Below, one piece after another: positions 30,973 to 63,530 of a DNA stretch of 64,000 bases (its first letter is position 1; the number at the start of each line of letters is the position of its first letter). A model generated the notes under the pieces. It had not been told where the DNA came from, searched no databases, and worked only from the letters and a program-made list of their open reading frames with translations. The DNA is taken from IMG/VR virus record IMGVR_UViG_3300034101_006340, positions 121,115 through 185,114 of that record. One strand, written 5' to 3'. This stretch comes from a virus. The position numbers were made by a program, and so were the translations under genes.

Positions 30973-33900
30973 CTATGTAAACTTAAATTCTGATATATCT
31001 ATACAGACAATATTACCTGATTTTAATCTAATATATCTATAATTCCAATTACCATTTATAACTCTTGAAGATGTTGCTGAAGTGAAACTCGAACTGTTGA
31101 ATGCTTCTATGAGTGTCCAGTTGACATTATCAGTACTGCCTTCCACACTGGCATGATTAATATAGGTTGGACCATAAAAATAATGAGCAGTAACTGTTAT
31201 AGATTTAACATTTCGTATCGAACCAAAATCGGCAATTATAAAAGCAGCACCAGTACTACCAGCACAACTGCTAAAAGTACTACCAGCTGCATTCACATTA
31301 TCTTTAAGATCATTTATATTAGGATAAAATAGATTACCAATTGTAGTACTCTTTGCTCCACAACAAGGAGCACTACTAGTAAATGTCCAAGAAGATATTG
31401 GTCCATATGACGGCGATGTTGTGGTGACAAATAGGACAACAGGATTACTACTAAAATAACTTGTATTTTTTGTAGATAAAGACAAACCATATGTTCCTGG
31501 TCCGGGTACTGTTAGTGTAGCACTTGTTGCGGTATAATATGTACTAGTTTTATTTGATGGAGTTGTTATATTCCAATATTGTAAATAATAACTAATATTA
31601 CCTGGAATATCATAGCCACTAGCTGCTGGTCCAGATGGAGCAACCCATGTCAAATTAATACCGGTTGCAGAGCTTGCTGTTGCGGTAAAATTGGTCGGAG
31701 AAGATGGTGATGAAAGTCCCTTGGATATACATTCATGATTAAGCCATGATGAAACACCGCTAGGATTATAGGCTCTAACGCGAGCACAGAATGATACACT
31801 ATTATGATTAACGCATTGAGCATTAAGATTAACATTGCCTGGGATGCTGTAAGTAGTTAATTGAGTACTAAAATTGCTATCAGCAGCATATTGTACTTCA
31901 TATCCTGTTATTGCTAATCCTCCATTATTAGAGGGTGTTTGCCATTTAAAAACAGGAATGTGAGAACCAACAACAGTATTGCCATAAGTAAATCCGGTAC
32001 AAGTAATATTAGAACCAATAATATAATAAGAAGTATTCCATGATCCCCAAGAACTAGAAGTAATTCCATTCTTAGAGATACCACTATAATATGTCAAACC
32101 ATTCATTAAATATACATATACAATACCAGTTTGAGATGATGTTAATGCTCCGGCCTGAATGGCAGCAGTGCGTATGTCGCTATCATGTGTATAAGGATTT
32201 CTTCCCCATATTGGACCCCCACTATAAGGAGTAGTTACTCTAACTCCATAAATAGTATCTAATTGACTATAGTTTGTCATATTTATCGCATTATTAATAG
32301 TCATATTGAATGAGCCATTCTGCGGAACTGCTGTAAATGACAATGTACTATTTAATGGTGGAGATGGAGCAGAGTAAGGCGGCACCGGAGTAGCTTGGCC
32401 AATATTAGAGAATGATCCTGTGCCTATGGTATTAAGAGCCCTAACTCTAAAATAATAATTAGTATTATTAGTCAGCGACGATATTGATGTTTGTAAACCA
32501 GTTACGGTTGTATTATTTACATTAGTAGCAAAAGTAGAGCTAGTGCTATATTGTAAATTATATCCAGTAATTGCAGATCCTTTGGATACTGGCTTATACC
32601 AGCTAGCAAGCACAGTAGTATTTCCTGGATTTAAATTATATAGCAATGGACTATCCGGAACTTGCTTACTGAGAAATGTTGATGAACTGTTGGCACTAGA
32701 TCCAACACTGTTATTAGCTTTTCCTCTAAAATAAAAAGTACTATAATTACCAGTTATTGGAACATCAAAACTAATAGAACTTATATTGTTTTGTGTTGTT
32801 AGTGTTAATAGATTACTAGTAAAGCCAGACCCAGAAGAAACATATATAGTATAATTAATAATTGGAGAACCACCATTGTCTGCTGGTGGATTCCATCCTA
32901 GGTTTATAGTATCATCATCTATCCAATTAGCAATAAATCCAGATGGAGCATTAGGAATTGTCAGGGGCTTATTGGGTACAGCTAGCACACCTGAAGAATA
33001 TGGTCCGTAACCTAATTGGTTATAACCTCTCATTCTAAAATAATACGTGGTATTATTTGTCAAACCAGTAACAGTGATAGGCGTATAGTTAGCAGTATGC
33101 GAAGAGGAAGTTACGCTAGAAAAAGCACTATTGGTACTACGTTCTAAACCAAAGAAAGAAATAACATTTCCTCCATTGCCGGTTGATGGTAAATAAGATA
33201 TGGTTATAGAACCATCTCCAACCGATGTCGATAAGTTGATAGGTGCGCTTGGTACTGTTTTAGCCAATGTGAAAGAAGAATGAGTTCCTGTGCCAGCAAG
33301 ATTAATAGGAATAATTCTAAAATAATAATTACCGGTCGATGTTAATTCACTGCTAAATTTAGCTATCTTAAACTCTATTTTGTTATTTTTATAGTATAGG
33401 GATAAACCTTGAGAATTTGTTGTGGGTGATGTTGTAGTTGGAACACCAACATAAAAAGTCGAATTGTAATTTGGTGAAGTATCCACATCAGGAAAATTAG
33501 CATACATTGATCTATCGATACGATAACCAGTAATTGTGGATCCTCCGTTATTAGATGGAGCATTCCAGCTTACATATGTTTCATCAAATCCCCAAACGCC
33601 GCTCAATGAGCTAACACCAGACGGAACATTATACAATGGCGCGACCTCAAATATATTTGATTCTACTGATTGTCCATAAGAATTACTACTATAAAGCTTG
33701 ATATAATATGAGCTAGAATCAGACAACCCGGTAATACTACCAGAAGAATCTGTAAATGGCTGTGTATTTACTATTTCGTTTGGTGAAGTGCCGTATAGTG
33801 CTGTATATGATATTGTAGAATCACTGTTGGTTGGTGGGTTCCAATCCATATCAATTTTTCCACTGCCTCTTATTATTGAAGCAAAATCTATTTTTCCTGG

Positions 33901-35337: not shown

Positions 35338-38300
35338 TTAGCCGCACATGAGCGTACAAGCAACAAGATATGAATCATCTGAATATTCTGTTATTTTATT
35401 TACTGAAGAAACTTTGCCTATGGTACTAGATCGTACAATATCATCATTTTGGGCTATTGCTGTACCATCTCCAGCACTTTCTAAAAGATCACCGGATTGC
35501 ACAATACCTTTTACTCTAACGTAATATGCTCCCAAACCAGCAACATACATATCTCCAGTACTAGCATAATTTTCATCCCAACCTAAAAATACTCCGTAAA
35601 CTCTTTTGCTTTTTGGAATATCGCTTATTTTAACACGTACTAATCTATCACTTTTACCATCAATCCATTCGCATGTTTCATCTAAAGTTTCTAAAACTGT
35701 ACCACGTAAAATTTCTGGTTTACTATTATCTATTAATTGCGACCAGTGAGATCCACAGAAAGCATTATAACTAACAGTATTTCCAGCTATACTAATAGAT
35801 CCCTCAAGAACAGCATCTTGATATAATGCAACTATGGTTCCGTCAGCAGCTTTTAGATTTAATCGTAAACATTCAAAGGATGAGCGGCTGACGCTGATGT
35901 AGTCGGTGGCGATTGCCACGCCGTTGGTGTTTGCACCTGCTGGGTCTGTGGTTGTAAATTGTCCAACTAATACATTTCCGTTAGCATCTACCCTAAATCG
36001 TTCTGCTCCACCAGCCGTGCTAATGCAAAATATATCGGCCCCAGCACTACCAAGAAATGGTCCATTACCAGTTGAACCATTATTTAATTGAACACCGTAT
36101 TTTTCAGTAGCAGCAAAAAACTGAGTACGTCCATTGCCTCCAACTCGTACTCTTTCTACTCCAACAGTATCAAAAGTTATATTATTTCCAACACTTCCCA
36201 TATCTGGCGCATATGTTACAGCAGTATCTTGAAAAGCTAATCTGCTTCTGGTTCCTCCGGTATTGTTTAGATATGTTGTGATATTATTGGTTGCACTAGC
36301 ACTACCAACAACGTGTAAACGATAAGATACCGTAGCTGTTCCTATTCCAACATTTCCACCTTGTCTATTTAAGATTAATGCTTGATGACCAGTTTCAGCA
36401 TTATTAGTAGATTGAATCTCAGCATATTGACCAACACCGAACTCATAATAACAACTCATTTTTAATCTTTGATCAAGATTATCAATAAGAATACTAGTTC
36501 GTCCACCGTTATTATCTTGCATTACTGATAATACTTCGGGTGGGCTTGTTGATGCTGCTCCTATTCCAACATTTCCAGCACTAGTTATTCTCATTCTTTC
36601 AGTATTATTAGTCCCAAAAACTAATGCCTTATTAGGCTCAACTCTTATTAAACCATCTTCTGTACCCATTAATCCTATTAATAAGCCACTAGCGGTAGTA
36701 GTATCCGTATTCGATATTCGTAAATAAACATCGTCAGCGGATGATCCGTGGATCTGGAGACGTTGTGTGGGAGAAGATGTTCCTATTCCAAGATTACTTC
36801 CGTCAAAAGTTAAATTACTTTCAGCATTAATTCCAACACTACTTCCAGTACTAGTAAGTATTCTATTATCACCACTATTAGCTATTGTGGGTAATAATCC
36901 AGTAACTCCACTACCAAAATTAGTAATGTCAGATATGGTATGAGTATGATTTAGTTGAGCATATTGTGCGGGACCTCCTAAACCAGCCCACTCTACAACA
37001 TCTCCAGAAGCTCCTGGAGAACTTAATAAGAAAGATGTTCCATTTGTAGCAGTATAGTCTTCACCATCCAGTAATTTAAATCCATTGTAATATACTTGTA
37101 GATTACCAACTAAATAATTTGGAGTAACAGTAAAAGTATCTTTAGCTGTTGTTAATATCTCATATCCAGTAATGGCAACCGCATATAAATTTATTGTTAA
37201 GTTTCCATCATTATCATTATAAGAAACACTAAGTCCTGTTCCGGCAACTATTCCTGTGCCTATTATATCCATAACATCTTCTGCTGATACTGCTCCGCCA
37301 GATGATGTGCTATTTATTGTATAATTTCCATTATTAGAAAATATGCTAATTCCTGTTCCAGCAATTATATCTTTAACTGGTAATAGTCCGCTTACACCAC
37401 TATTAAAATCGGTAATTTGACTACTAGAATGAGTGTGACCACTCAAGCTAACTCCGGTACCATTCACCAAAAGATTTTGACTAAAGTTACCAGTACCAAC
37501 AACATCTAGTTTATATGATGGTGAGCTAGTACCTATGCCAACCCTATCTGTGCTGGCGTCAGTAAATAAAAGATTAGTATCTGTGTCGCCCTCTACTCTA
37601 AGATCTAAATTAGCCCCCTGTTCATTAACTGTAAACTCGCTGTTGTTCATCCTAATATAGTAACCAAGATATGAGGTGCTATATCCAGTTAAAGGAATGG
37701 AGCCTTGTCTTATAAGTCCAAGGTTTATAGTAGATCCTTTAAACTGACTAATCCCACTATCGTATATGAGGGTATATTCATCTACTAATAAGGGATAACT
37801 AAAATCGCTGATTACATTATTGAGATCTTGTATATTTTGTGAGGAGATGTTGGTTAAATATCCCTGTAAGGCGTGATTGCCCCATCCATGAGCAGCATTC
37901 CAATTGGTTGAATCACCGCTAGTGGCTGTAATAACACCACTAACATCCAGCTTAGAAGAAGGTGAAGATGTGCCTATACCAATATTTGTTCCATTGTCAT
38001 AAATTATACTATTATTTAAACTATTAGTTCCAGTCCATTTTGTAATAGAATTGGCTGAACCAGTTCCTGTTGGAACCGCTGTGCCACTAACTTGTAATGT
38101 AGTAAAATTTCCACTAGAGCTAGGAACCCACAATCCACTAACACTATTATACTGTAAAAATTGTCCATTAGTCGCACCGGTTACAGCAACATTATGAAGC
38201 TCTTCCAACTCATAACCATTTTGAACTCTAACCTCAATAACTCCTTCGTTTTGATGAGTTCGTACAATAGTTCCCATAGCCACAATATGATAAGGAGCAT

Positions 38301-50652: not shown

Positions 50653-51482
50653 GAATTTTCCTCTCGTGCTAAAACAATCTCTGGGGTAAGAAGCGGACTA
50701 TCCAGAGTATTATCAGCATAAGAGTGATATTCGGATAGTTTATTTTTATAGTTATCGGCTGCTATTTCCATAATAGCCATTTCTTTGCCTTCTTTTTCTC
50801 TTGTTTCTTCGTCTTCAAGCATTCGTATTAATCCGACCCAGGAGCTTTTACCATCCTCTATTCTTTTGATTCGTTGTTCACGAGTAGCTTTAAGGTCTTT
50901 GCTAATCTTTTGCTGTTCATTAAGCAGTTTGGTATACTCATTAGTATAATTAGCGATACTGTTGCGGGCAAATGATAGTTGTGTTTCGAGATTGGCCAGT
51001 TTTGGAATATCTCGTTGATCTTCACTTTTGGCATATTCTTTATCCACTTCATTTTGAAGTTTTTCGGTATCACTAATGTGGCGTTTGCGTTCTTTCATGC
51101 TGCGGTTAATAAGAATATCAATAGTGATAAATTGTTTGATTTGAAGTTCTTCTGCGGGCAAAACATCTTCTCGAAACTGTTTAATTAATCCTACCCAAGT
51201 ATTTTCAAAGTAAGATAATTCTCCACTATCTTTATCAAACTGTTTTTCAATCTCAGACCAAAAGGTTTTTAGATATAACTTTTGTTTAAGTATTTGATCA
51301 TCTGATGATGTTGATGATAGTTGAGTTTGTTGAACATACTTTTCAATAGGGGCGGTACTACGATTAAGATTAGCTGCAATTTGTTCAATAGTTAAAGCGC
51401 TAATATTATCTCTTATATACTTTTCTTCGTCTAATCCTAGTTGTCCTCTTTTTTTGGGACCTTTATGATTTTGATTTTCCAT
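50649..51482 (-). CDS. HTH + coiled-coil protein, possible terminase small subunit
   Basis: N-terminal Myb/HTH-like EEKYIRDN...EQIAANLNRS, then a long coiled coil, upstream of TerL. TerS assignment is inference. Confidence 0.4.
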   Translation of the reverse strand: MENQNHKGPKKRGQLGLDEEKYIRDNISALTIEQIAANLNRSTAPIEKYVQQTQLSSTSSDDQILKQKLYLKTFWSEIEKQFDKDSGELSYFENTWVGLIKQFREDVLPAEELQIKQFITIDILINRSMKERKRHISDTEKLQNEVDKEYAKSEDQRDIPKLANLETQLSFARNSIANYTNEYTKLLNEQQKISKDLKATREQRIKRIEDGKSSWVGLIRMLEDEETREKEGKEMAIMEIAADNYKNKLSEYHSYADNTLDSPLLTPEIVLAREENS

Positions 51483-52101
51483 GAGTATCTAGTATCTCTT
51501 TAATAATAGGTAAAATCTTTTGTAGATCAGACTTATAAATTTTATCTCCGTGTTTTAGTTTAAGATAGGTTTCTCTATGTGGTGCAGGAATGTGCTTGTC
51601 TAGTAGGTCGAAAATTTGTTTATTATTAACATAATCGGCTACTGATTCTAATGAGTGTAAATTAAGAGAATTATCTCCAACATCTTCAATAGCAACGGGC
51701 TTCATGATATTCTTCTTATTCATATTGCGAGTATACCAAGCATCATATTCTTCGCAATCATTTTTATTTTTAAATTCTGTGCATTGATTTTGTGAATTGG
51801 CACAGTGTTTGTCATAAAAGCGACAACTTAGACAGGGTTTATCGGGCCTTTGGTAGTTGTCTCGTTTGTAATTAAATAACCGATTACGAACATGGGTCCA
51901 TAAAAAGTTTTCTAGTGGGCGAGAGTTATCGTACTTTTTTAAACCTTCAAGAGCAAATATAGCTGCCTGTTGTTTCATGTCTTCAATACTATGATATCCA
52001 AAATTAAATTTGTAGGCTAATCTTTTGCTAATGTTTTCTAAAACTGTAAGAAACTCTTCTTCATTCACGTTGTTCGGTAGTGGGTTTTTCTTTTTGCTCA
52101 T
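51463..52101 (-). CDS. Sigma70-family-like phage sigma factor with Cys4 insert
   Basis: Region-2-like EDMKQQAAIFALEGLKKYD..RPLENFLWTHVRNRLFNYKR, followed by CLSC...C...C...C and a C-terminal HTH-like segment. Confidence 0.65.
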   Translation of the reverse strand: MSKKKNPLPNNVNEEEFLTVLENISKRLAYKFNFGYHSIEDMKQQAAIFALEGLKKYDNSRPLENFLWTHVRNRLFNYKRDNYQRPDKPCLSCRFYDKHCANSQNQCTEFKNKNDCEEYDAWYTRNMNKKNIMKPVAIEDVGDNSLNLHSLESVADYVNNKQIFDLLDKHIPAPHRETYLKLKHGDKIYKSDLQKILPIIKEILDTHGKSKS

Positions 52102-52294: not shown

Positions 52295-52513
52295 ATGGCT
52301 AACTACAAAAAGTGGTCAAACGAAGAGATGGAATTTATAAAGAATAATCACGGGGTTGTGCGAGATGAGGAACTTGCTGTTAAGCTTAGTCAAATGACCG
52401 GGCAAAATGTTACAACGGCCATGATCAGACGACAAAGGCGAAAGCTAAGTCTCAAAAAGAGTCGAGGCAGACCAAAGAAGCAAGGCATCTTAGCATCAAA
52501 TAATCAAAACTGA
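52295..52513 (+). CDS. Small Myb/HTH-like DNA-binding protein with AT-hook-like tail
   Basis: KWSNEEMEFIKNN...DEELAVKL...; KKSRGRPKK. Confidence 0.6.
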   Translation: MANYKKWSNEEMEFIKNNHGVVRDEELAVKLSQMTGQNVTTAMIRRQRRKLSLKKSRGRPKKQGILASNNQN

Positions 52514-52670
52514 TAGATTATAAAGACTATTCAGGGGCCATCTGTGAGGTTTAGGTGATACATTTATGGTATGTGTCGCTTACTGTTTATGCCCTCCGGG
52601 CGGCTTTTTGAGATTTATTCTCAATAACGGCACAAAACGAAAAAACCCCCCATAGGTGGGGGATAGCCGC

Positions 52671-52686
52671 AGCAAATAGTATGCCA
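52671..52686 (-). promoter_or_regulatory. sigma54-type -24/-12 site TGGCATACTATTTGCT
   Basis: GG-N10-GC, matches TGGCACG-N4-TTGCW. Confidence 0.6.
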
Positions 52687-53031: not shown

Positions 53032-53047
53032 AGCAAATATTGTGCCA
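53032..53047 (-). promoter_or_regulatory. sigma54-type site TGGCACAATATTTGCT
   Basis: Near-perfect RpoN consensus. Confidence 0.65.
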
Positions 53048-54060: not shown

Positions 54061-54142
54061 CGTAAACCCTTACGGCTTAAGGACTTACGACGAAAACGCG
54101 CCCGCAATTTTGACGTAAGTGCTTATATATCAACGACTTACG
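54061..54142. repeat. 82-bp double-dyad element, copy 1
   Basis: cgtaaaccctt-acggctt-aaggacttacg / 24 bp / cgtaagtgctt-atatatc-aacgacttacg. Confidence 0.95.
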
Positions 54143-54148
54143 ACGCAT

Positions 54149-54164
54149 AGCAAATATCATGCCA
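54149..54164 (-). promoter_or_regulatory. sigma54-type site TGGCATGATATTTGCT
   Basis: GG-N10-GC, 6 bp from the end of dyad element 1. Confidence 0.65.
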
Positions 54165-54253
54165 AAAAATAATTTTCTTTTTCTAATTTTTTTTTCTTGC
54201 AAGTACGATAATGATATGTAGAATAAGTGAAAAGAAAGAAAGAGAGATTGAAA

Positions 54254-54484
54254 ATGGCAAACCTGATTGTTCTGAATACTAAGGCTGAGTTGGTTGACCT
54301 TATCAACAATACGGAAATGACGACGTTTGTAAATCGTGTGGCCTTTGCCATGGATTTGCTTGACCATGTTCGTGCTAATGGTAATGAGATTGCCATTGAC
54401 GATGAGTTAGGATTTATGGATGATGGTGGATACATTCAGATTGACGATATGGGCTATGTTGTGGCCGATTTTGCAATCTGCTGA
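54254..54484 (+). CDS. Early acidic hypothetical protein (76 aa)
   Basis: First ORF behind element 1 and promoter 54197. Confidence 0.65.
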   Translation: MANLIVLNTKAELVDLINNTEMTTFVNRVAFAMDLLDHVRANGNEIAIDDELGFMDDGGYIQIDDMGYVVADFAIC

Positions 54485-54559
54485 TTTTCTTTTCTTGACA
54501 ACTAAAGTTTCGAATGTAGAATGTCGATATAAAGAGTAAGAAAGAAAGAGAGAAAGAAA

Positions 54560-54739
54560 ATGAACGTTGGTGATTTTATTTTCGCCGAATATGATAACGG
54601 CGAAATTGTGAACGGTGAAGTGGTCACGGTTAGAACGTTTGGGGATCGTATGCTCTTGACGGTCAAGGCCGAACAAGGGTATCGGTCGATCTATCTTGAC
54701 AAGTGTATCACGTTTGATATGCTGGAAGCCTCTAACTGA
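54560..54739 (+). CDS. 59-aa paralogue of 53150 ORF (MNVGDFIFAEY...GYRSIYLDK)
   Basis: Translated by hand, behind promoter 54495. Confidence 0.7.
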   Translation: MNVGDFIFAEYDNGEIVNGEVVTVRTFGDRMLLTVKAEQGYRSIYLDKCITFDMLEASN

Positions 54740-54748
54740 AAGTGTAAT

Positions 54749-54937
54749 ATGTTGACTGTCAAGCCCGAACATTATCGTAAGACTTTCGAAGATATGAAAA
54801 CTGAACACTTGCAATTGTGGCTTCATCTCGCACAGAATGAACTCCCCTCTAAAATGGGGGCTGCTCGGGAACTTATCAAAGCGGGTATTAGTGCTGCGGC
54901 CAGTGAATTGTTGTTCCGGTGGAGGCATAGCCTGTGA
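54749..54937 (+). CDS. Early hypothetical protein (62 aa)
   Basis: Track ORF, co-oriented with neighbours. Confidence 0.5.
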   Translation: MLTVKPEHYRKTFEDMKTEHLQLWLHLAQNELPSKMGAARELIKAGISAAASELLFRWRHSL

Positions 54938-55061
54938 TATACTGGGAAACTTCAAGATGCTCTGATAGATATAGAGTATGGAAAAATGGCGATATCGTGG
55001 GTGATAATCTTACAATCGATGAATGTTGGAAACTAATAATCTCTATACAGGATAACAAATA

Positions 55062-55250
55062 ATGAATAGCCTTGATAAGATTCTAACAGCTATGCGAACT
55101 GGCAAGTATGGTAGTGTTATTGATACTAAAGGTAATGCTCATGTTGGTATTATCAATAGTATCATGCGAGAAGATGGTAGCGGAAAGAATTGGATTGTAA
55201 CAGTGAACAATCGTACAGTAAGTGAACAAGTGTTCATTCATGCGTCATAA
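55062..55250 (+). CDS. Early hypothetical protein (62 aa)
   Basis: AGGA RBS, track ORF. Confidence 0.6.
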   Translation: MNSLDKILTAMRTGKYGSVIDTKGNAHVGIINSIMREDGSGKNWIVTVNNRTVSEQVFIHAS

Positions 55251-55261
55251 AGGAATAATAC

Positions 55262-55432
55262 ATGAGAAGTATCGACACCCTTACACTGCAACACGAATTA
55301 CGACGCTCGCAGTTTGTTCTTGATAGATGTACAACCGAGCAGCAGAGACAAATGTATAGGCTATATATAAAAGACTTATCTGCTGAACTACTCTATAGAT
55401 ATCGTGAAATGAAGTTAGCCCCACCGGCATAG
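55262..55432 (+). CDS. 56-aa hypothetical (MRSIDTLTLQHEL...)
   Basis: Translated by hand, AAAGGA RBS. Confidence 0.5.
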   Translation: MRSIDTLTLQHELRRSQFVLDRCTTEQQRQMYRLYIKDLSAELLYRYREMKLAPPA

Positions 55433-55448
55433 TGTACGTCTGTACCAG

Positions 55449-55485
55449 CTAACCCTACGGGTTGGCAAGATGGGCTATAGCCAGC
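55449..55485. repeat. ~38-bp TAC-triloop hairpin repeat (other copies 57681-57718 and 60094-60131)
   Basis: ctaaccc-tac-gggtt..ggc......ggctatagccagc. The third copy has aatcc-tac-ggatt. Confidence 0.8.
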
Positions 55486-55566
55486 GTAAACCCTTGATAT
55501 ATAAGGACTTACGACAAAAAAGCGGGCGAGATTTTGACGTAAGTGCTTATGCTGCAATGACTTACG
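55485..55566. repeat. 82-bp double-dyad element, copy 2
   Basis: cgtaaaccctt-gatatat-aaggacttacg / 24 / cgtaagtgctt-atgctgc-aatgacttacg. Confidence 0.95.
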
Positions 55567-55572
55567 ACATAG

Positions 55573-55588
55573 AGCAAATGCTGTGCCG
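55573..55588 (-). promoter_or_regulatory. sigma54-type site CGGCACAGCATTTGCT
   Basis: GG-N10-GC, 6 bp from element 2. Confidence 0.6.
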
Positions 55589-55676
55589 CAAAAAACTTTT
55601 TTTGACTGATTTTTTTTAGTTGACAAACCGATACTAGAATGTAGAATGATTGAAAAGAAAGAAAGAGAGAAAGCAA

Positions 55677-55802
55677 ATGGAATGGCTGGTTTTCAATGGT
55701 AATATGCAAGTGATTGGTACGGTTGTTGCTGACGGTTATACTGAGGCTTTTATGGTCGCCCGTTGCCGATTTGGTTATGTCGAATACATTGAGCAAATGT
55801 AG
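55677..55802 (+). CDS. 41-aa hypothetical (MEWLVFNGNMQVIGTV...), related to 59949 ORF
   Basis: First ORF behind element 2 and promoter 55620. Confidence 0.6.
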   Translation: MEWLVFNGNMQVIGTVVADGYTEAFMVARCRFGYVEYIEQM

Positions 55803-55858
55803 GGATTGACAGTCTACCAAACCTTTGATAAGATAGTCTCAACAAGAAAGAAGAAAAA

Positions 55859-56233
55859 ATGAAAACGAAGTATGCTATCATTGAAAACGCCAAGCGTCAG
55901 GCCCGGATGATCTTCAAGGGTATCGCTATTCCGATGCTCGTCGAGATTCCGGACGATAAGGTAATCGAAGGTGAGGATGCTCACTATGTCTACAGTGTTG
56001 ACGGCCAAAAGCGATACCTTGTCACCGAAAAGGTTCTCAAGTTCAATCGCAAGGCTCTGCGTCGTGCTGGTACTGTCAAGGTCACCAAGGCCGACCCCCG
56101 ACTTGTGGGGGGTGAGGATCTTATGCGATTCCCGGTTGGTAAGCCCGGCAGTCGTGAGCGTGTTGAGGCTCTTGCTGCACAGTATGCTAGTCTGTCAGAA
56201 GATGAGATGAGCCCCTTTGCTGATGAGGAGTAA
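55859..56233 (+). CDS. Early hypothetical protein (124 aa)
   Basis: Track ORF with purine-rich leader. Confidence 0.7.
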   Translation: MKTKYAIIENAKRQARMIFKGIAIPMLVEIPDDKVIEGEDAHYVYSVDGQKRYLVTEKVLKFNRKALRRAGTVKVTKADPRLVGGEDLMRFPVGKPGSRERVEALAAQYASLSEDEMSPFADEE

Positions 56234-56394
56234 ACACATGCTCAAGAATCTTGAAGATAAAACGCTCTCAGTAATGTGGACAGTAACAGAAGGTACTAAT
56301 GATTTGTACAGTATTTATCTTGATGGACAACTGTACATGAGTCACCTGTCGTTCGATGAGTTCTACCCCATATATAGGGGGTTGCTTAAATAGA

Positions 56395-56476
56395 CGTAAA
56401 CCCTTACGGCGTAAGAACTTACGTCAAAAGGGCGCCGCCCGCCGCGTCGTAAGTGCTTATGCCACAATGACTTATG
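56395..56476. repeat. 82-bp double-dyad element, copy 3
   Basis: cgtaaaccctt-acggcgt-aagaacttacg / 24 / cgtaagtgctt-atgccac-aatgacttatg. Confidence 0.95.
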
Positions 56477-56482
56477 ACCACT

Positions 56483-56498
56483 AGCAAAAATTATACCA
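56483..56498 (-). promoter_or_regulatory. sigma54-type site TGGTATAATTTTTGCT
   Basis: GG-N10-GC, 6 bp from element 3. Confidence 0.5.
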
Positions 56499-56590
56499 AA
56501 AAGAAAAAACTTTTTTCGCTAATTTTTTTTCTTGACGTTTCCGATATCTAATATATAATCGAAGCATCAACCCACAAAGGAGAATCCACA

Positions 56591-56785
56591 ATGCTTCACG
56601 ATTTTGATGAAATCAATGTTATCCTCTCCGCCATGCACGACGAAGGTTTGGTCGAACCGATTGATGAGCCGTCATGTCATCCTCTTGAGTGGGCGGAGGT
56701 TACTGGGCTAATCGAGGAAGTGATGGAAGAAATCTATCCCGAACCCATGGTTGACGAACACGGTATTCTTTGGTATACTTACTGA
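56591..56785 (+). CDS. Acidic hypothetical protein (64 aa)
   Basis: AAGGAG RBS, behind element 3 and promoter 56532. Confidence 0.7.
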   Translation: MLHDFDEINVILSAMHDEGLVEPIDEPSCHPLEWAEVTGLIEEVMEEIYPEPMVDEHGILWYTY

Positions 56786-56798
56786 AAAGGAGAAAAAG

Positions 56799-57113
56799 AT
56801 GAGTCACCCCGATTCCTGCTACGATCCCGATAACTCTTACGAGGATGATGACATGGCATACAACTATGACGATTACAATGGCTTTCATGACGAGGACAGT
56901 GCGGGCTATCATCCAGATGCCGAGCATGAGGTTGCTTCACAATTTAATGAGAATGACGAAGATGAAGAATGGTTTGACGATTATGATGATAGTATGGATG
57001 GAGATCACGAGTCCGGCCTTGCGAGTGCGGGTTGGGGGACCGATGAGGATTACGGCCACTATGGAGATGACATCGATTCCTTCCACGATTATTATGGTGG
57101 AGAGGACTACTGA
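56799..57113 (+). CDS. Extremely acidic D/E/Y/H-rich protein (104 aa)
   Basis: AAGGAG RBS. No Lys or Arg in the translated product. Confidence 0.7.
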   Translation: MSHPDSCYDPDNSYEDDDMAYNYDDYNGFHDEDSAGYHPDAEHEVASQFNENDEDEEWFDDYDDSMDGDHESGLASAGWGTDEDYGHYGDDIDSFHDYYGGEDY

Positions 57114-57305
57114 TAAAAAATAATAATACGGGGTATTATCAGTTTCGAAAGGATAAATAATGTCAAAAGATGAACCGTATGTATATGTATTAGATAATCA
57201 TCGTGGTGATAGAGTATGGGTGCGGGAAAATTATGTAAAGTTATATCCTCATCTATATACGCCCATACAGTTTAATGGAAAAACCATGACCAGTGACTGC
57301 CCGAA

Positions 57306-57387
57306 CGCAAACCCTTGTGTCGTAAAGACTTAGGGCGAGCGGGGCCGGCCGACTTTAACGTAAGTCCTTATCCGACAACACTTTAGA
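57306..57387. repeat. 82-bp double-dyad element, copy 4
   Basis: cgcaaaccctt-gtgtcgt-aaagacttagg / 24 (central GGCCGGCC) / cgtaagtcctt-atccgac-aacactttag, last arm degenerate. Confidence 0.9.
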
Positions 57388-57477
57388 GCAAATTAAAAAA
57401 TTGTCTTTTTTTTCTTTGACAACTAAAGTTGCTTTGATAGAATGTCGATATACAAGTAGAAGAAGGAGAAAATACAG

Positions 57478-57684
57478 ATGAGAAAGCTAAGCAAAACGGA
57501 AATTGCTGATTTGGAGTTTGACGCTGATCTTATGGGTTATAGGGTGGTCTATCTGCCAAAACCACTTGACGAGAATCATTTCGTGTTGTATCGTAAAGAG
57601 CCAGTGTTGACTCATATCGGACACTATCGTAATCTTATCAAGGTTCGACAGGCTATGCAGGATAACTACGTTAGTCCTAGCTAA
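57478..57684 (+). CDS. Early hypothetical protein (68 aa)
   Basis: AAGGAG RBS, behind element 4. Confidence 0.65.
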   Translation: MRKLSKTEIADLEFDADLMGYRVVYLPKPLDENHFVLYRKEPVLTHIGHYRNLIKVRQAMQDNYVSPS

Positions 57685-57781
57685 CCCTACGGGTTTGGCT
57701 GGTGTGGCTTTAGTCAGCCTAAAGTTTTGACTCTTGACAAGACGATATATTATAGTAAACTGATGCAGGAAAGGGAGACTT

Positions 57782-57952
57782 ATGGTAACTCTGCTGTTTA
57801 CGATTGCTGGTGTAAGTGGTTTATTTTTATTTAGTGAGATTCTTGCTAAGATTTGCAGGGATCTCAACGAATATAATACTATGAAGCAAAGAGGATTTAT
57901 GCGTATGAAGGATGATAAGGGCGAAGATTTCTGGGTAGGTTACGGGGATTGA
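57782..57952 (+). CDS. 56-aa membrane-anchored micro-protein
   Basis: MVTLLFTIAGVSGLFLFSEILAKI..., GGGAG RBS, promoter 57734. Confidence 0.55.
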   Translation: MVTLLFTIAGVSGLFLFSEILAKICRDLNEYNTMKQRGFMRMKDDKGEDFWVGYGD

Positions 57953-58156
57953 CTCTAATTATAGGAGAACACGGATGTTTGAAATTGATTTTGTTAGTGT
58001 TGTACTTGGTTATATTCTCGGGGTTATACTTTGTTATAATACTGCACCTCTCTTTTTTATGGAGAAGAATGATGAGGATAAGTGATCTGATTTTGTGGAG
58101 TGTGGCTTTTATTTGTGGCTGTACGGCTACATATCTAATGAATTAAAACTGTTCGA

Positions 58157-58238
58157 TGTAACCCATTGCCACTAAACAACTTAGGGCAAAATGGGCCGGC
58201 CGAATTTTTCCTAAGTCTTTATCTATCAACAACTTACG
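58157..58238. repeat. 82-bp double-dyad element, copy 5
   Basis: tgtaacccatt-gccacta-aacaacttagg / 24 (central GGCCGGCC) / cctaagtcttt-atctatc-aacaacttacg. Confidence 0.9.
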
Positions 58239-58315
58239 TCTAAAGATTTTTTCTAATTTTTTTTCTTGACATTACCGATCTATAGAGTAGAATCAAGAAA
58301 ACGAAGGAGATAAAG

Positions 58316-58555
58316 ATGCTCGACGGATATAAGAAAACCTATACGTTTGGCAATGGTTACGGAGCCAGCGTTGTTTGCAATCGGCACACCTATGGTGGCG
58401 ACAGGGGGTTTTTTGAGGTTGCTGTGCTAGACATGGCCGGAGAGATTGTGTACGATACTTCTGTGACTAGCGATGTGATCGGATGGCTTGATTTTGATGG
58501 TGTTGCTAAGACGCTGCAAGCAATCCAGAATCTTCCAAAAAAGACTAATGTTTGA
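58316..58555 (+). CDS. Early hypothetical protein (79 aa; FGNGYGASVV...FFEVAVL)
   Basis: AAGGAG RBS, behind element 5. Confidence 0.7.
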   Translation: MLDGYKKTYTFGNGYGASVVCNRHTYGGDRGFFEVAVLDMAGEIVYDTSVTSDVIGWLDFDGVAKTLQAIQNLPKKTNV

Positions 58556-58592
58556 CTTGACAAGCGTCGATCTATAGTATAGGATTTGAAGC

Positions 58593-58730
58593 ATGACTGA
58601 AAACGAAATCGAGATGTGGGCTACGCTAGCCATCTGGTTTATTGGTGGATGGTTTGTAGGTTCTACCGTTGGTTGGTATGCCTTTCTTTACGCTTTTAAA
58701 CTGTTTGACGATTATCTGCACAGGAACTAA
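58593..58730 (+). CDS. 45-aa membrane micro-protein
   Basis: MTENEIEMWATLAIWFIGGWFVGSTVGWYAFLYAF..., promoter 58557. Confidence 0.5.
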   Translation: MTENEIEMWATLAIWFIGGWFVGSTVGWYAFLYAFKLFDDYLHRN

Positions 58731-58817
58731 AATGGACGCTCTGATTGGTTTAAGTTTTGTTGTTGCTTACGCTGGTTTTTTCTACTGCACTGTCTCTCTT
58801 TACGAAAAGGGTTGAAT

Positions 58818-59126
58818 ATGACTCACGCCGAAGCTGTTACTATGGTTCGTGGTAAGACTAACCGGACTAGTCGTAAAATTGGTAATAATACTCGTGGATA
58901 TATCGAGTATGATGGTAGTGTTAGTATCGAATTACATAGCACTAAGGTTGTGGTGTTGTATCCGAATGGTCTTGTGAAGTTGCAGACTGGTGGATGGCAA
59001 ACGGTTACTACAAAGGATCGTATCAACCAGTATAGCCCCGTAAGAGTTTACCAAAGAAATTACGAGTGGTTTGTCAAGTTGAATGGCAAAGAATATCCAT
59101 TCATCGAAAATATGGTGGTATCATGA
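58818..59126 (+). CDS. Early hypothetical protein (102 aa; LQTGGWQTVTTKDRIN)
   Basis: Track ORF with start trimmed. Confidence 0.7.
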   Translation: MTHAEAVTMVRGKTNRTSRKIGNNTRGYIEYDGSVSIELHSTKVVVLYPNGLVKLQTGGWQTVTTKDRINQYSPVRVYQRNYEWFVKLNGKEYPFIENMVVS

Positions 59127-59320
59127 AAAATATCAACCAGATTATTAGATCATTGCAAAAGGCAGGATTTAAAGTAGAGTTTGGTAATGGTAGTTTGGTA
59201 AAGCTATATCCTGTGGATTCGACTCAGCCATTCTATTCGTTGCATATTGGTGAACGCGCTATTCATCCGTTGAAGAGATTTGCAAAGAAAAATTGGAATA
59301 TCGAGTTGAATAAACTGTGA
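59123..59320 (+). CDS. HicA-like fold protein (65 aa)
   Basis: IIRSLQKAGF.V..GNGSLVKLYP...YSLHIG pattern, ATGA-coupled to the previous gene. Confidence 0.45.
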   Translation: MKNINQIIRSLQKAGFKVEFGNGSLVKLYPVDSTQPFYSLHIGERAIHPLKRFAKKNWNIELNKL

Positions 59321-59384
59321 CTTGACAAGTAGTTTTTTTGTGGTATGCTTGGTGTGTCTTCTAACTAATCGAAAGGAAAAGAAA

Positions 59385-59786
59385 ATGAACGAGTTTGTTA
59401 TTGCTGGTATGGTTTGTTGTGTTGTTGCTGTTGTTGGTTTCATCCTGTTTCATGTGTATCGTGGTACTGCCGATACCCTGAGTAATGCTCGTATTGGTGG
59501 TGTGTATAACTTTCAGTACGAACAGCCAGTAACTGGTGATCCTGAGCGTTTTATGGCTAGGGTTATTAGTGTGCATCGTTTGAGTGCAGATAGTATTCAG
59601 AGACTGAATCGTACTAGCCGTTATCGTAAGCATGACAATCAGTTTGTGCGTACCACACACCTTGTTACTGCACAAACTCCGGATGGTAAGATTCGTAACT
59701 TCTATGCCGAACGTACTAGCAATGTTCGTCGCCCCCTCCTTGGTGGGGCGTTGTTCAAGAGCGGTTTGGCTGCGATGATTTTCTAA
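59385..59786 (+). CDS. Membrane-anchored protein with WYL/SH3-like domain
   Basis: N-terminal hydrophobic helix; YNFQY...LVTAQTPDGKIRNFYAER. Confidence 0.5.
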   Translation: MNEFVIAGMVCCVVAVVGFILFHVYRGTADTLSNARIGGVYNFQYEQPVTGDPERFMARVISVHRLSADSIQRLNRTSRYRKHDNQFVRTTHLVTAQTPDGKIRNFYAERTSNVRRPLLGGALFKSGLAAMIF

Positions 59787-59801
59787 AAACCGGTCGCTCT
59801 T

Positions 59802-59883
59802 CCTAAGTTCTTATACCACAAGGACTTAGGGAGAGTGCGGCCGCAGCATTTTGCTGTAAGTTGTTATTCCACAAGGACTTAGG
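59802..59883. repeat. 82-bp double-dyad element, copy 6
   Basis: cctaagttctt-ataccac-aaggacttagg / 24 (tgcggccgca) / tgtaagttgtt-attccac-aaggacttagg. Confidence 0.95.
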
Positions 59884-59948
59884 ACGACTAAAGTTTTGCT
59901 GTTGACAAGCCGATATTCTATAGTAGAATGATCGAAACGGAGAAAGAG

Positions 59949-60161
59949 ATGAAACCGTATTTGTGGGCTGTGTGGCAACATAATCGTTTGGTCGGTTATG
60001 TTCAATCTTTTAGTGAATGGGACGCTATCAGATATGCTCATTCTAAATATGGTCATGGATTGTATGTAGAAAGATGCCTACATTGTGTACCATCTAATCC
60101 TACGGATTCGGCTAGAGTGGCTGTAGTCAGTCAGAATACGGAGAACAGATATGCTTCATGA
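59949..60161 (+). CDS. Early hypothetical (70 aa), related to 55677 ORF
   Basis: Behind element 6 and promoter 59902. Confidence 0.6.
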   Translation: MKPYLWAVWQHNRLVGYVQSFSEWDAIRYAHSKYGHGLYVERCLHCVPSNPTDSARVAVVSQNTENRYAS

Positions 60162-60348
60162 ATGTACCAAGCAGTTGATTAGGAATCAGGTTGCAGATTT
60201 TGCAGAAAAGTTGATTACCCATGCTATTGAAGGAGATAATGAAGGGTGTTTGCAAGAGATGACATCCTTTTATGAATTCTTTTGCGGGGCCTTGACAGTG
60301 GCTCTCAGGGATGGTAGAAAGAGTGATGAACGAGTAAGCGTCAACTGA
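60151..60348 (+). CDS. Early hypothetical protein (65 aa)
   Basis: GGAG RBS. Confidence 0.55.
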   Translation: MLHECTKQLIRNQVADFAEKLITHAIEGDNEGCLQEMTSFYEFFCGALTVALRDGRKSDERVSVN

Positions 60349-60358
60349 AAGGGAAAAG

Positions 60359-60859
60359 ATGCCTAATTGGTGCCAGAATAATCTGACGATTGAGCATAAT
60401 GATCGGTCTAAGGTTATGGAGTTTGTTCTTGCCTATAAGGAAGGCAAGGTTTGTGACCATTATCTGCCCGTGCCAAGAGATGAGAAGGGTGAGGTTATCA
60501 CAGATGAATCTAGCCCACACTACTGGTATACTTGGTGCATAAATAACTGGGGTACTAAGTGGGATATTGGTAGTGATAATAATGAGGCCCATGGATTGAA
60601 ACCTACCGTTGTGGGTAATCAGGCCACTATGGCTTTTGATAGTGCGTGGAGTCCTCCGGTTGGACTCTACGAAAAGTTGCAAGAACTTGGATTTAGTGTA
60701 GAGGCTACGTATTTTGAGCCGGGTATGGCTTACTGTGGTATCTGGCATGATGGAGACGATCATTATGTTGAGTATACTCATAAGGATATGATTCCTAAGC
60801 GTATTTGGGATGATTATAATCTTAGTGAATTTTTTACTGAAGAGGAGATTGAAACATGA
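60359..60859 (+). CDS. Api92/YubB-like (DUF1281 C-terminal ferredoxin-like) protein
   Basis: MPNWCQN.L...WCINNWGTKWD...FDSAWSPP...YFEPG. Confidence 0.75.
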   Translation: MPNWCQNNLTIEHNDRSKVMEFVLAYKEGKVCDHYLPVPRDEKGEVITDESSPHYWYTWCINNWGTKWDIGSDNNEAHGLKPTVVGNQATMAFDSAWSPPVGLYEKLQELGFSVEATYFEPGMAYCGIWHDGDDHYVEYTHKDMIPKRIWDDYNLSEFFTEEEIET

Positions 60860-61062
60860 GAATGTGGATTAGCGACAAGGAAATGCAGAAGTATCATGAT
60901 GCCGTATCTATGCGATGTGGCGATTATCAGATATGGGATGGAATATCTCTTGACAATATGACTAATGAAGAGTATAAGAAGGGTATTTTAGAGTGCTATC
61001 GTAAGGCTCTCAATGATATTCCTATGCCTAATGAAACCCCAGTAAAAGGATTGGTTGGATGA
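60856..61062 (+). CDS. Early hypothetical protein (68 aa)
   Basis: GAGGAG RBS, ATGA overlap. Confidence 0.6.
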   Translation: MRMWISDKEMQKYHDAVSMRCGDYQIWDGISLDNMTNEEYKKGILECYRKALNDIPMPNETPVKGLVG

Positions 61063-61232
61063 AACCTTGTCCATGTGGCTCTAACAAAAACAGTTGGTGG
61101 GAAAGTGATGCTAGGGGTATTCCACTGGCTAGGGTGTGTGTGGAGTGTAAGGAAAAGAAGTTGAGTAAGTTTAGACCGGAAGTGCTTGCCAACTCAAACT
61201 ACTACGCAGACGAGCCTATCGAAGCCGAATAG
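61059..61232 (+). CDS. 57-aa Zn-finger protein (MKPCPCGS...DARGIPLARVCVEC)
   Basis: Translated by hand. CxC...CxxC motif, ATGA overlap, ends 9 bp before element 7. Confidence 0.65.
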   Translation: MKPCPCGSNKNSWWESDARGIPLARVCVECKEKKLSKFRPEVLANSNYYADEPIEAE

Positions 61233-61241
61233 GTGAATCGC

Positions 61242-61323
61242 TCTAAGTTCTTTGCCCAAGAGGACTTAGGGCGAGTTCGGCCGGCCGGGTTCGTCGTAAG
61301 TTCTTGCGGCTAAACACTTTATG
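61242..61323. repeat. 82-bp double-dyad element, copy 7
   Basis: tctaagttctt-tgcccaa-gaggacttagg / 24 (central GGCCGGCC) / cgtaagttctt-gcggcta-aacactttatg. Confidence 0.9.
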
Positions 61324-61347
61324 ACTTGCTTCATTTTCTGCAACAAC

Positions 61348-61363
61348 TGGCACACGCTTTGCT
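61348..61363 (+). promoter_or_regulatory. sigma54-type site TGGCACACGCTTTGCT
   Basis: GG-N10-GC, here on the plus strand between element 7 and a sigma70 promoter. Confidence 0.6.
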
Positions 61364-61426
61364 CTCTAAAGATTCCCTCTTGACTTGCCGATAAACTATG
61401 CTAGGATAGCAGCACACAGGAGAGAA

Positions 61427-62140
61427 ATGATGAAAACAGCAAATGGTAATGATAAGTTGGGTAAGGAAAACTGCATTGTGGTGAGTCGCCCCGTTGGTGA
61501 TACTTGCCCGCCCGATTGTGATTTTCTCGGAAACGGCTGCTATGCCGAGGACTTGGAAAATATCTATCCCGGTGTGCGTCCTGCTGGTATGCAGAATCTT
61601 ATCACAGAAAAGAATCGTATCCGCTCTATGCTTGTGGATGCGGTCAAGAAAAACAAAGATGTCCGCTGGCATGAGCGTGGCGACTTTTTCAAGGATGGTA
61701 GTCTCGACACCGAGTATGTAGATAACGTACTGTGGGCGTGTGAGAGTATTCTTGCTAGTGGTGGTAGTCTGCCGACTATGTGGGCTTATACCCATATTTA
61801 TGATAGTCGTTTATCTACCGAACTTGGCAAGTATATAAATATGTATGCTAGTATTCATGACGGCGAAGATATGCGACAGGCTAAGGCTGCTGGTTTCAAA
61901 CTGTTTGCATGGTGTGATAGTGATACTAAAATTGCACCGAAGCGTCCGCGTGGTAAGGCTAAAGCCGCAGCGTGGCGAGCAGCGTTGCCGAAACTGGTTG
62001 TACTGGAAGGTGAGAAGTTTATCACTTGCCCGGAAATCCGTCGTGGTCGTGGTGTTGTGACTTGTACACAAACGAAGAATAGTGTACACTGTGACTTGTG
62101 TCCGCGTGGATTGGCTAACGTGCTGTTTCCATCACACTGA
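61427..62140 (+). CDS. Gp88-like (radical-SAM-related) Cys-rich protein
   Basis: TCPPDC......CYA, VRWHERGDF, WAYTH, C-terminal CPE...C....CDLC. Start moved behind promoter 61380 and the AGGAG RBS. Confidence 0.7.
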   Translation: MMKTANGNDKLGKENCIVVSRPVGDTCPPDCDFLGNGCYAEDLENIYPGVRPAGMQNLITEKNRIRSMLVDAVKKNKDVRWHERGDFFKDGSLDTEYVDNVLWACESILASGGSLPTMWAYTHIYDSRLSTELGKYINMYASIHDGEDMRQAKAAGFKLFAWCDSDTKIAPKRPRGKAKAAAWRAALPKLVVLEGEKFITCPEIRRGRGVVTCTQTKNSVHCDLCPRGLANVLFPSH

Positions 62141-62147
62141 GGTTTTT

Positions 62148-62720
62148 ATGTCTGTATATATTGGACAATATGATGATGCTGGAAGCAAAAATGCTTTTTA
62201 CATTATCCCACAACGTAGGTTTGGCAAAAAGCGTATTGGATTCAAAGAGTTTGAAAATAAAAATGAAGCAGACTTTGCGTATAAGATTCAGAGTATTTTA
62301 GCAGATAAAGATTTAGCCCCCAAGGTTTATGGTCAAGTAGGACGAATCCAGAAGTCTGGTTATGATGGTGAATTGACCGGTTATGGATACCTTACAGAAA
62401 TTGCCCGACCTATGGCATACTGTAATGATGAATATTGTGATGGTGAGTGTTATGATAGTGATTGTAGAAATAGTAGTATCATAGCAGATATTGTGGGTAT
62501 GTTAGATTTTTATGGATTGGCTTATAGTGACCATCATCGTGCGAACTTTGGATATGTTCGACGTAATCGACAGTGGATTCCCGTCGTAATAGATGTTGGT
62601 ATTGAAAGTTTTGATGGTTGGGATGAGAGTATTTATGGAGAGTTTCAGTCTGACGACGAAGAAAACTATGGATCGTGCAACTGTGTATGTTGTCGCCAAT
62701 ATGCTAATCCCGAAAGGTAA
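62148..62720 (+). CDS. Protein-kinase-like enzyme
   Basis: IGFKEF (beta3 Lys), LAPKVYG, catalytic-loop YSDHHRANFG and IDVG (DFG-like). Confidence 0.65.
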   Translation: MSVYIGQYDDAGSKNAFYIIPQRRFGKKRIGFKEFENKNEADFAYKIQSILADKDLAPKVYGQVGRIQKSGYDGELTGYGYLTEIARPMAYCNDEYCDGECYDSDCRNSSIIADIVGMLDFYGLAYSDHHRANFGYVRRNRQWIPVVIDVGIESFDGWDESIYGEFQSDDEENYGSCNCVCCRQYANPER

Positions 62721-62723
62721 ATC

Positions 62724-62954
62724 ATGGCTAAATACTATATCAAGTGTGGAACATTGGAACTAATCTACTCATGCAACAAGGCTCCACGATATGCTGCTAT
62801 GGATGCTATATGGGAATTAAATGATAATGATGTGCTAGATGAGCATATCTATTTGGATGAGCGAAGCTATAAAGACTATACTAATGCTGATGGTTTAACT
62901 ACCGTTTTACACACTTCGCATATCTTGAAGGATGCGGGCTGGAGTTTGGAGTAG
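62724..62954 (+). CDS. Early hypothetical protein (76 aa)
   Basis: Track ORF. Its stop lies 1 bp before element 8. Confidence 0.6.
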   Translation: MAKYYIKCGTLELIYSCNKAPRYAAMDAIWELNDNDVLDEHIYLDERSYKDYTNADGLTTVLHTSHILKDAGWSLE

Positions 62955-62955
62955 A

Positions 62956-63037
62956 CCTAAAGCCTTGATCGTAAAGGACTTACGACGAGGCTGGCCGCAG
63001 GATGTTGACGTAAGTGCTTGTGTGATATAGGGTTGCA
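62956..63037. repeat. 82-bp double-dyad element, copy 8
   Basis: cctaaagcctt-gatcgta-aaggacttacg / 24 / cgtaagtgctt-gtgtgat-atagggttgca. Confidence 0.9.
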
Positions 63038-63109
63038 TCAACAGAATTTTTTCCAGAATTCCTATAGAAGCCTCTTGACAAGTGACGATAATACTTGTAG
63101 AATGACAGC

Positions 63110-63530
63110 ACAACACAAACATTCGTGGGCCAATGTAGGGCTAGGTTGGGATAAGCCATTACGATAAACCTACCGTATGCAATGCATCGGAAAGGTTGCC
63201 AACGGGCTTATACGTTGGATAGTAGTGCCAATCTATGGGGGATCGCGTCCTCACCACGACCATACAATCCGGAATTATCCTTCATCGGGTAATAGAGTGA
63301 ATTAACACCGCAACATTACGCTTGCGTTCTATCTTTCATCGGGTAGAATCACTGAAATAACAGCCGGATACCGAACAACCAGTAACCGCTCCCAAGAGCC
63401 AGACCAAAGTGACTGTTGCTAGCAGACTATCACTTTGCAGGGAGGATTTCCGTGGGCGGTTTCCATCCGGTCCTGACAAGGGCAATCGTATGGGTTATAG
63501 GATCGGGGCGTAAATGATCCGCTGGGTTTA
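63110..63530 (+). ncRNA. Candidate large structured ncRNA (~420 nt), family unassigned
   Basis: Directly behind promoter 63075-63103, GC-richer than its surroundings, no ORF of 60 aa or more. Many nested helices and two hairpins with an identical UUCAUC loop. Confidence 0.6.

Follow-up and report, generated by a model that had tools for sequence, protein, structure and literature searches.

The stoperators read by gp71 of phage L5 and the operators read by C1 of phage P1 are single, short (13-17 bp) and asymmetric sites of temperate-phage repressors, and in each of these operator sets one reader defines a genome-wide regulon and a specificity (immunity) group. In T4-type phages, the units termed PeSL (promoter-early stem-loop) lie on either side of small genes of unknown function in an early region that is plastic, and the units vary in order and content between relatives (Arbiol et al. 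2010, PMC2839356; Comeau et al. 2014, PMC4122927). In phage phi29, the p4 regions (sites 1-4) at the promoters A2c, A2b and A3 are composed of 27-bp dyads, two per region (PMC3100819). Here we describe an 82-bp four-armed element that recurs eight times in a 64,000-nucleotide stretch of virus record IMGVR_UViG_3300034101_006340 (hereafter the window), which is the minus strand of positions 38790-102789 of a 128,328-bp IMG/VR virus record (G000). Each copy has four CTTA(C/G)G-type half-sites, which form two 29-bp dyads with their centres 53 bp apart, flanking a GC-rich centre. We consider it fairly probable that the element is a duplex docking module for a sequence-specific protein, coupled to the main early promoters of this phage; the docked protein would most likely be a dimer of dimers.

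Architecture, position and spread of the four-armed element

The original prediction, made from the letters of the window alone, had described eight copies with a constant 24-bp spacing between the two dyads, freely varying 7-bp cores, a symmetric spacer with a GC core, and a placement of each copy after a gene end and before a promoter. All of these hold. The spacing 11-7-11-24-11-7-11 is exact at all eight positions in the window and in all 13 copies of the genome, and the pattern ACTTASG-N24-CSTAAGT, with at most one mismatch, matches eight times in the window, compared to a mean of 0.02 in 100 dinucleotide shuffles, none of which reached eight. The spacer follows the consensus nCrAr...GGCCGGCC...yTyGn. 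The 7-bp cores of the 13 genome copies all differ from one another, and the core positions 13-17 and 66-70 carry 0.04-0.2 bits across the family. The genome-wide scan that the prediction had proposed added five copies beyond the window end (G000 32036-32117, 33251-33332, 35684-35765, 36605-36686 and 38010-38091), all in the same array; the 13 copies lie within ~17 kb of the early region, and the remaining 111 kb of the genome has none. Element starts range from 28 bp inside the upstream open reading frame (ORF) to 64 bp past its stop codon, and arm 1 supplies a second in-frame stop, TAA, in elements 3 and 8. From the element end, 19-57 bp lead to a TTGACA-16/17-TAGAAT promoter, and the ORF stops and promoter distances of all eight copies agree with the predicted placement.

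A search of IMG/VR contigs with the query GACTTASG-N24-CSTAAGTNCTT, which covers the inner arms only, matched at least 117 stretches, and a looser scan of the matched loci gave 481 distinct copies of the same geometry among the matches listed. The outer arms are conserved as C-TAA----TT and AA----TTA-G, although they are absent from the query. All carriers are relatives of this phage. In the four relatives tested that carry this element (type A, see below), the contigs are 125-233 kb long and TerL is 69-81% identical to that of this phage; another contig, G001, has many early and replication genes in common with it. Among cultured phages, megablast gave no match and the best TerL is 24-28% identical, so there is no literature on a close relative. 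The same pattern matched 30 stretches in a scan of bacterial and archaeal genomes. The four-armed, multi-copy matches among them lie on phage-like contigs of metagenome-assembled genomes that were binned under assorted phyla; these contigs are short except one of 141 kb, which is probably a whole phage genome. The matches on large chromosomes, or in a single copy, have neither the outer arms nor the GC core, and their number is close to chance. As true copies occur only on phage-like contigs, the element is a phage feature rather than a borrowed host site. A description of the family was not found in the full-text literature, where only the PeSL and phi29 analogues surfaced; the family is thus widespread and, as far as this search showed, undescribed.

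Polarity, helical phasing and exclusive element types

Copies were oriented by the promoter wherever one was present on exactly one side (328 of 472). In this orientation the element is polar: the promoter-distal dyad leans towards CCTAA...TTAGG, with G at position 28 in 72% of the copies, and the promoter-proximal dyad towards CGTAAG...CTTACG, with G at position 55 in 79% and C at position 81 in 65%. In 197 de-duplicated copies, the -35 hexamer lies at clustered distances from the element end, namely 17-19, 25-31 (peak 28-29), 37-41, 49-51 and 59-63 bp. This corresponds to a period of ~10.5-11.3 bp, and the observed periodicity was reached by none of 2000 nulls jittered by +/-5 bp. Within the element, conserved blocks sit at around positions 4, 10, 20, 26, 32, 41.5, 51, 57.5, 63.5, 72.5 and 79, and by arithmetic on the column frequencies these blocks alternate between major and minor groove on a single helical face. 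Between element and promoter there is an UP-like tract, in which an A-run precedes a T-run. Phasing, polarity and one-face blocks together resemble a protein array docked upstream of RNA polymerase; neither a terminator nor a recombination site needs such an arrangement.

Covariation was analyzed in an alignment of 117 distinct, promoter-oriented copies against 500 shuffles. For one long hairpin, 67.7% of the cells are paired, compared to 68.6% in the shuffles, 495 of which are at least as high; for a fold into three hairpins the values are 67.2% and 67.7% (432 of 500 at least as high), and the covariation scores of both folds do not exceed those of the shuffles. Mutual information is strong between neighbouring bases only, as expected from alternative half-site variants such as AAACC and AAGTC. 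For all arm pairings at variable positions, the paired fraction hardly departs from the product of the column frequencies, with a largest excess of 0.09 (positions 2/28). The mirror positions 28/55, 9/74, 22/61 and 30/53 pair below expectation (26% versus 48% expected for 28/55), and positions 6 and 24 most often combine as an A-C mismatch. The GC core of 8 bp is unable to form a loop, no copy has a U-tract after its hairpins, Rfam at gathering thresholds gives no match in the window, and the terminator scan lists no element as an intrinsic terminator, save a weak match in the spacer of element 6. Computed folds are better than those of shuffles in six window copies (z -2.5 to -4.5), chiefly through a hairpin of arm 2, spacer and arm 3, but not in the other two (z -0.24 and -1.3); this folding is due to the near-palindromic sequence, as any palindromic protein site would fold alike. 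Because base-pair covariation, a U-tract and an Rfam match are all lacking, we take the duplex to be the unit of selection, not a hairpin of RNA or single-stranded DNA.

A second element type was found at the equivalent position in other relatives. G006, a complete relative of 224 kb, has the same promoters and a homologue (74% identical) of the gene for the 72-aa protein that heads the array in this phage. It contains no type-A element and carries ~19 copies of type B, which consists of CTGCCAnnnTGGCAG, a 14-bp GC-rich spacer and the same dyad again. Type B is present in 77 IMG/VR stretches and is also phased to the -35 hexamer, at 12-16, 22-25, 33-36 and 51-54 bp. The two types exclude each other: among 206 element-bearing loci, type A alone occurs at 128, type B alone at 78 and the two together at none, and complete genomes are single-typed as well (G002 is A, G006 is B). 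TerL of four type-B relatives is 66-79% identical to that of this phage, a range close to the one given above for four type-A relatives; the type-B status of G012 and G013 was confirmed separately. On a FastTree phylogeny of the most widespread early protein (72 sequences), at least 8 type changes were counted, compared to 19-26 in ten shuffled-label values, a rough count because the tree rests on a short protein. As judged from this tree, the element types do not define clades and are interspersed in the phylogeny. There are also a third variant with shifted arms, AAGACTTTGCG, and a hybrid variant on contig G007, which has a sigma54-like motif in place of one dyad. That each genome is strictly uniform although genes flow between the types argues for a single cognate reader in each phage. 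On the sequence evidence, this reader is probably lineage-specific and phage-encoded, each genome being committed to one.

The promoter spacer contains a conserved CCGATA (TTGACA-n3-CCGATA-n7-TAGAAT) in type-A and type-B phages alike. This motif suggests an extra promoter reader, for which the 72-aa array-head protein is one candidate.

Weighing the explanations

The element might act as transcribed RNA, its long hairpin or three hairpins serving as a terminator, an RNase III site or a 3' stabiliser. It occupies a 3' untranslated position, six of the window copies fold better than shuffles, and the PeSL stem-loops at the equivalent genomic position are proven terminators (PMC2839356). Nevertheless, neither fold covaries, symmetric positions are anti-correlated, positions 6 and 24 favour a mismatch, U-tract and Rfam match are missing, and two copies fold no better than shuffles, which together make a role as RNA improbable. 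The original prediction had seen no covariation between the arms and leaned towards protein binding to double-stranded DNA; the former is borne out in the larger alignment, and the latter is supported by it and by the one-face blocks, the polarity and the -35 phasing. As its other possibility it had offered integron- or pdif-like cassette shuffling, that is, a new attC/pdif-like family of sites with cassettes moved by a host Xer-type or unrecognised recombinase. The 11-7-11 order of arms, core and arms does resemble the geometry of tyrosine-recombinase core sites, and cassettes have moved. The distal cassettes are collinear with those of G002 (TerL 81% identical), with one exception: cassette 7 (element 7 and genes 61427-62954) lies there between the homologues of cassettes 10 and 11; at protein-level resolution the borders of this relocation coincide with elements, and elements travel with their downstream promoter and genes. 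The promoter-proximal cassettes are scrambled gene by gene between the two genomes. However, contig L162, which is 99.25% identical, differs in content at two places only, by an indel of a single gene (208 bp, 60848-61055) and by an insertion of 171 bp at 62150-62153, and each of these lies inside a cassette at a gene border. A recombinase, of which the prediction had seen none in the window, is absent from the whole 128-kb genome, in which neither PF00589 (tyrosine recombinase; control matched in 14 of 14 reference genomes) nor PF00239 (serine recombinase; 12 of 14) was found. The near-random central 7 bp leave no identical overlap for strand exchange, there is no folded-strand covariation, and no four-armed copies were found on bacterial chromosomes in the scan. 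With no recombinase, mismatched cores and recent indels away from the elements, a dedicated site-specific system is not indicated, and we regard the recombination reading as most unlikely. Cassette exchange would fit ordinary, PeSL-like homologous recombination at repeated promoter/element patches.

Two further explanations keep a bound protein and assign it another task. Enhancers of bacterial enhancer-binding proteins typically consist of two dyads a few helical turns apart, as the element does, and the element could be such an enhancer (upstream activating sequence) driving adjacent sigma54-type promoters. Across the family, the motif TGGCAY-N5-TTGCW was found 31 times beside elements, compared to 0.45 expected; in G007 the motif takes the place of one dyad, and element 7 lies ~25-105 bp upstream of a co-directional TGGCAC-N5-TTGCT. 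This role is nonetheless very unlikely: only ~8% of the elements have the motif, and in 25 of the 31 cases it lies on the other strand and points into the element from 7-13 bp away, so that the dyads would fall downstream of the start site and too near for looping, whereas an enhancer of this kind calls for a co-directional sigma54 promoter ~80-150 bp downstream of the dyads. Moreover, the phage lacks PF00158, the AAA+ domain of enhancer-binding proteins. Alternatively, the element could be solely a protein-dependent boundary, a roadblock terminator or insulator against upstream (and any leftward) transcription that leaves the downstream promoter untouched. Every copy sits right at a gene end, the early region at 54-64 kb is devoid of canonical top-strand intrinsic terminators, and at the element-free position 52590-52664 back-to-back intrinsic terminators precede the same unit of motif and promoter. 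The element is also polar, like the stoperators of mycobacteriophage L5. A pure roadblock, though, needs no helical phasing to the -35 hexamer, yet both element types are phased, and we consider a boundary function without effect on the promoter rather unlikely.

Several lines of search for the protein that would read the element gave candidates that were then rejected. The first gene of the rightward early region, at 52295-52513 (+), encodes the 72-aa protein, which is 47-76% identical across relatives of both types. By eye it shows a Myb/SANT-like helix pattern followed by an RGRPKK AT-hook, and Pfam gives no match for it. In the presence/absence profile of four type-A and three type-B genomes, the only family shared by all of type A, a 61-aa protein at extended coordinates 73304-73489, evolves fast, and its type-B homologues have no type signature. 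The 70-aa protein at 59949-60161 and the 124-aa protein at 55859-56233 topped the ranking of within-type versus between-type identity, and the types intermix in their sequence families. The top associations over the 206 loci were spurious ORFs that read across the elements, and Pfam on the type-A-specific candidates returned transferases and methyltransferases only. Integration host factor (IHF) was also set aside: by inspection of column frequencies, the outer arms read CAA-N4-TTA, but the ATCAA of its sites shows no conservation, and simultaneous occupation of four sites at distances of 22-31 bp would be impossible.

The docking of a protein that acts on the adjacent promoter thus has to be set against the following points. 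The type-association and domain searches found no binding protein, and no gene is present in four of four type-A and zero of three type-B genomes, barring one fast-evolving family of ~60 aa. The 72-aa array-head protein fails as the determinant of specificity, its recognition region being the same in type-A and type-B phages. Given this failed search, the reader may instead be host-encoded. In addition, about a quarter of the family copies have no promoter within 160 bp by the strict pattern, the spacings in this phage (19-57 bp) match the family peaks only loosely, and internal early promoters occur without any element. The direction of the transcriptional effect is a weak point too.

With these reservations, the docking module would work as follows. 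It would mark the upstream border of each main early transcription unit, after the previous stop codon, where it abuts the UP-like A/T tract of a near-consensus sigma70 promoter at whole helical turns from the -35 hexamer. The bound protein would touch or constrain RNA polymerase at that promoter. With promoters that are near consensus to begin with, a timed shut-off or gating of early transcription, like that of phi29 p4 at A2c, is more likely than activation. The complex may also insulate a cassette from read-through of the previous one, and as a side effect the repeated element-plus-promoter units would serve as homology patches for cassette exchange by ordinary recombination. More tentatively, the family could form a system of one reader and one site type, in which the proteins gate all main early promoters and the specificity (A, A2, B or hybrid) is swapped as a whole; we hold this to be possible but doubtful. 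If true, it would be like the immunity groups of temperate phages, but in large, apparently lytic phages, and it could mediate early shut-off as well as cross-exclusion or cross-talk between co-infecting relatives.

Almost nothing is known about how large uncultured aquatic phages control their early genes. A regular, abundant cis-element with at least two exclusive specificities and a constant helical register to strong promoters offers a handle for finding new phage transcription regulators, and it may explain how plastic early regions keep functioning while cassettes exchange. The rigid 82-bp module beside a near-consensus promoter is directly testable in reporter systems.

Features of the region and comparison with described systems

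The coordinates of the elements, their promoters and neighbouring motifs are listed in the table.

Table. Elements, promoters, motifs and repeats of the early region, in window coordinates unless marked as extended
Feature	Position	Strand	Remarks
Element 1, 82 bp	54061..54142	+	arms 11-7-11, spacer 24, arms 11-7-11
Element 2, 82 bp	55485..55566	+	
Element 3, 82 bp	56395..56476	+	starts 1 bp past stop of ORF 56217-56393
Element 4, 82 bp	57306..57387	+	ORF 57160-57333 crosses arm 1 and core, with TAG stop in arm 2
Element 5, 82 bp	58157..58238	+	
Element 6, 82 bp	59802..59883	+	arm 3 is TGTAAG, one mismatch to the core pattern
Element 7, 82 bp	61242..61323	+	head of cassette 7 (GP88-family gene and two others)
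Element 8, 82 bp	62956..63037	+	arm 4 degenerate
Early sigma70-type promoter, element 1	54197..54224	+	TTGCAA-16-TAGAAT, CGATA in spacer, T-rich UP-like tract upstream
Early promoter, element 2	55620..55647	+	TTGACA-16-TAGAAT, CCGATA in spacer
Early promoter, element 3	56532..56559	+	
Early promoter, element 4	57416..57443	+	29 bp past element end
Early promoter, element 5	58266..58293	+	28 bp past element end, the modal family spacing
Early promoter, element 6	59902..59929	+	19 bp past element end, CCGATA in spacer
Early promoter, element 7	61380..61407	+	
Early promoter, element 8	63075..63103	+	heads the ~420-nt ORF-free stretch
sigma54-like -24/-12 motif TGGCAT-N5-TTGCT	54149..54164	-	7 bp right of element 1, pointing into it
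sigma54-like motif CGGCAC-N5-TTGCT	55573..55588	-	right of element 2
sigma54-like motif TGGTAT-N5-TTGCT	56483..56498	-	right of element 3
sigma54-like motif TGGCAC-N5-TTGCT	61348..61363	+	between element 7 and its sigma70 promoter
sigma54-type motif	52671-52686	-	faces an intrinsic terminator
sigma54-type motif	53032-53047	-	
Back-to-back intrinsic terminators	52590-52602 and 52645-52664	+ and -	position taken by 82-bp elements further along
Second repeat family	55435-55484, 57667-57720, 60080-60135; extended ~65007, ~72370		

A second family of repeats is found at gene ends and sometimes inside coding sequence; it consists of CTAAYCCTACGGRTT, which forms a small AACCC/GGGTT hairpin, followed by ...GGCT.TAGTCAG. 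Downstream of the promoter of element 8, positions 63110-63530 are free of ORFs, and Rfam at gathering thresholds gives no match there. The proteins of the early cassettes include a member of the GP88/DUF7227 family (61427-62140) and a DUF932 protein (L001:430-1383, -) that is 76-83% identical in relatives. The first gene of the leftward block beside the early region encodes a 212-aa protein (51463-52101, -) with a weak match to Sigma70 region 2 (E 3.6e-05, just under the Pfam cut-off), possibly a phage sigma factor for later genes. The scanned L001 stretch beyond the window end contains five tRNA genes, and an ORF of 4719 aa lies at 9544-23703 (-) of the window.

Among described systems, integron attC and pdif/Xer sites share the arm-core-arm geometry and the location at cassette borders with the element, which differs in that there is no recombinase, no common central region and no folded-strand signal, and in that recent indels lie elsewhere. 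The L5 and P1 operator sets likewise occur in many copies in short intergenic spaces and are oriented to transcription; compared to them, the present family has paired 29-bp dyads, is confined to the early region, and is found in a phage that lacks an integrase by PF00589 and PF00239.

The PeSL units (PMC2839356, PMC4122927) have a similar layout, in which an element at a gene end is followed by an A/T tract and a strong sigma70-like early promoter. The promoters of this phage conform to this description, being sigma70-like early promoters with an A/T-rich upstream tract, located in intergenic positions among small ORFs, and here as there the units flank small genes in a region of variable gene order and content. 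The upstream parts differ greatly: in PeSL it is a GC stem-loop shown to terminate transcription (PMC2839356), whereas here it is a rigid 82-bp array of four arms that lacks covariation and a U-tract, is phased to the promoter and comes in mutually exclusive types.

The p4 regions of phi29 also resemble the element. The dyads are long in both (27 bp in phi29, 29 bp here), with a weakly conserved middle and about two turns between the conserved outer bases, and in both there are two dyads per region upstream of early promoters, here in register with the promoter. In phi29 a phage protein acts on RNA polymerase, and the protein docked on the element is a candidate for the same mode of action. 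PF05464, the p4 family, gave no match in this phage, but no control genome matched either. The two systems differ in the sequence of the half-sites and in their layout, with one intergenic switch region in phi29 compared to 13-17 copies per genome here, each with its own promoter and with no known counterpart of p6 as a partner.

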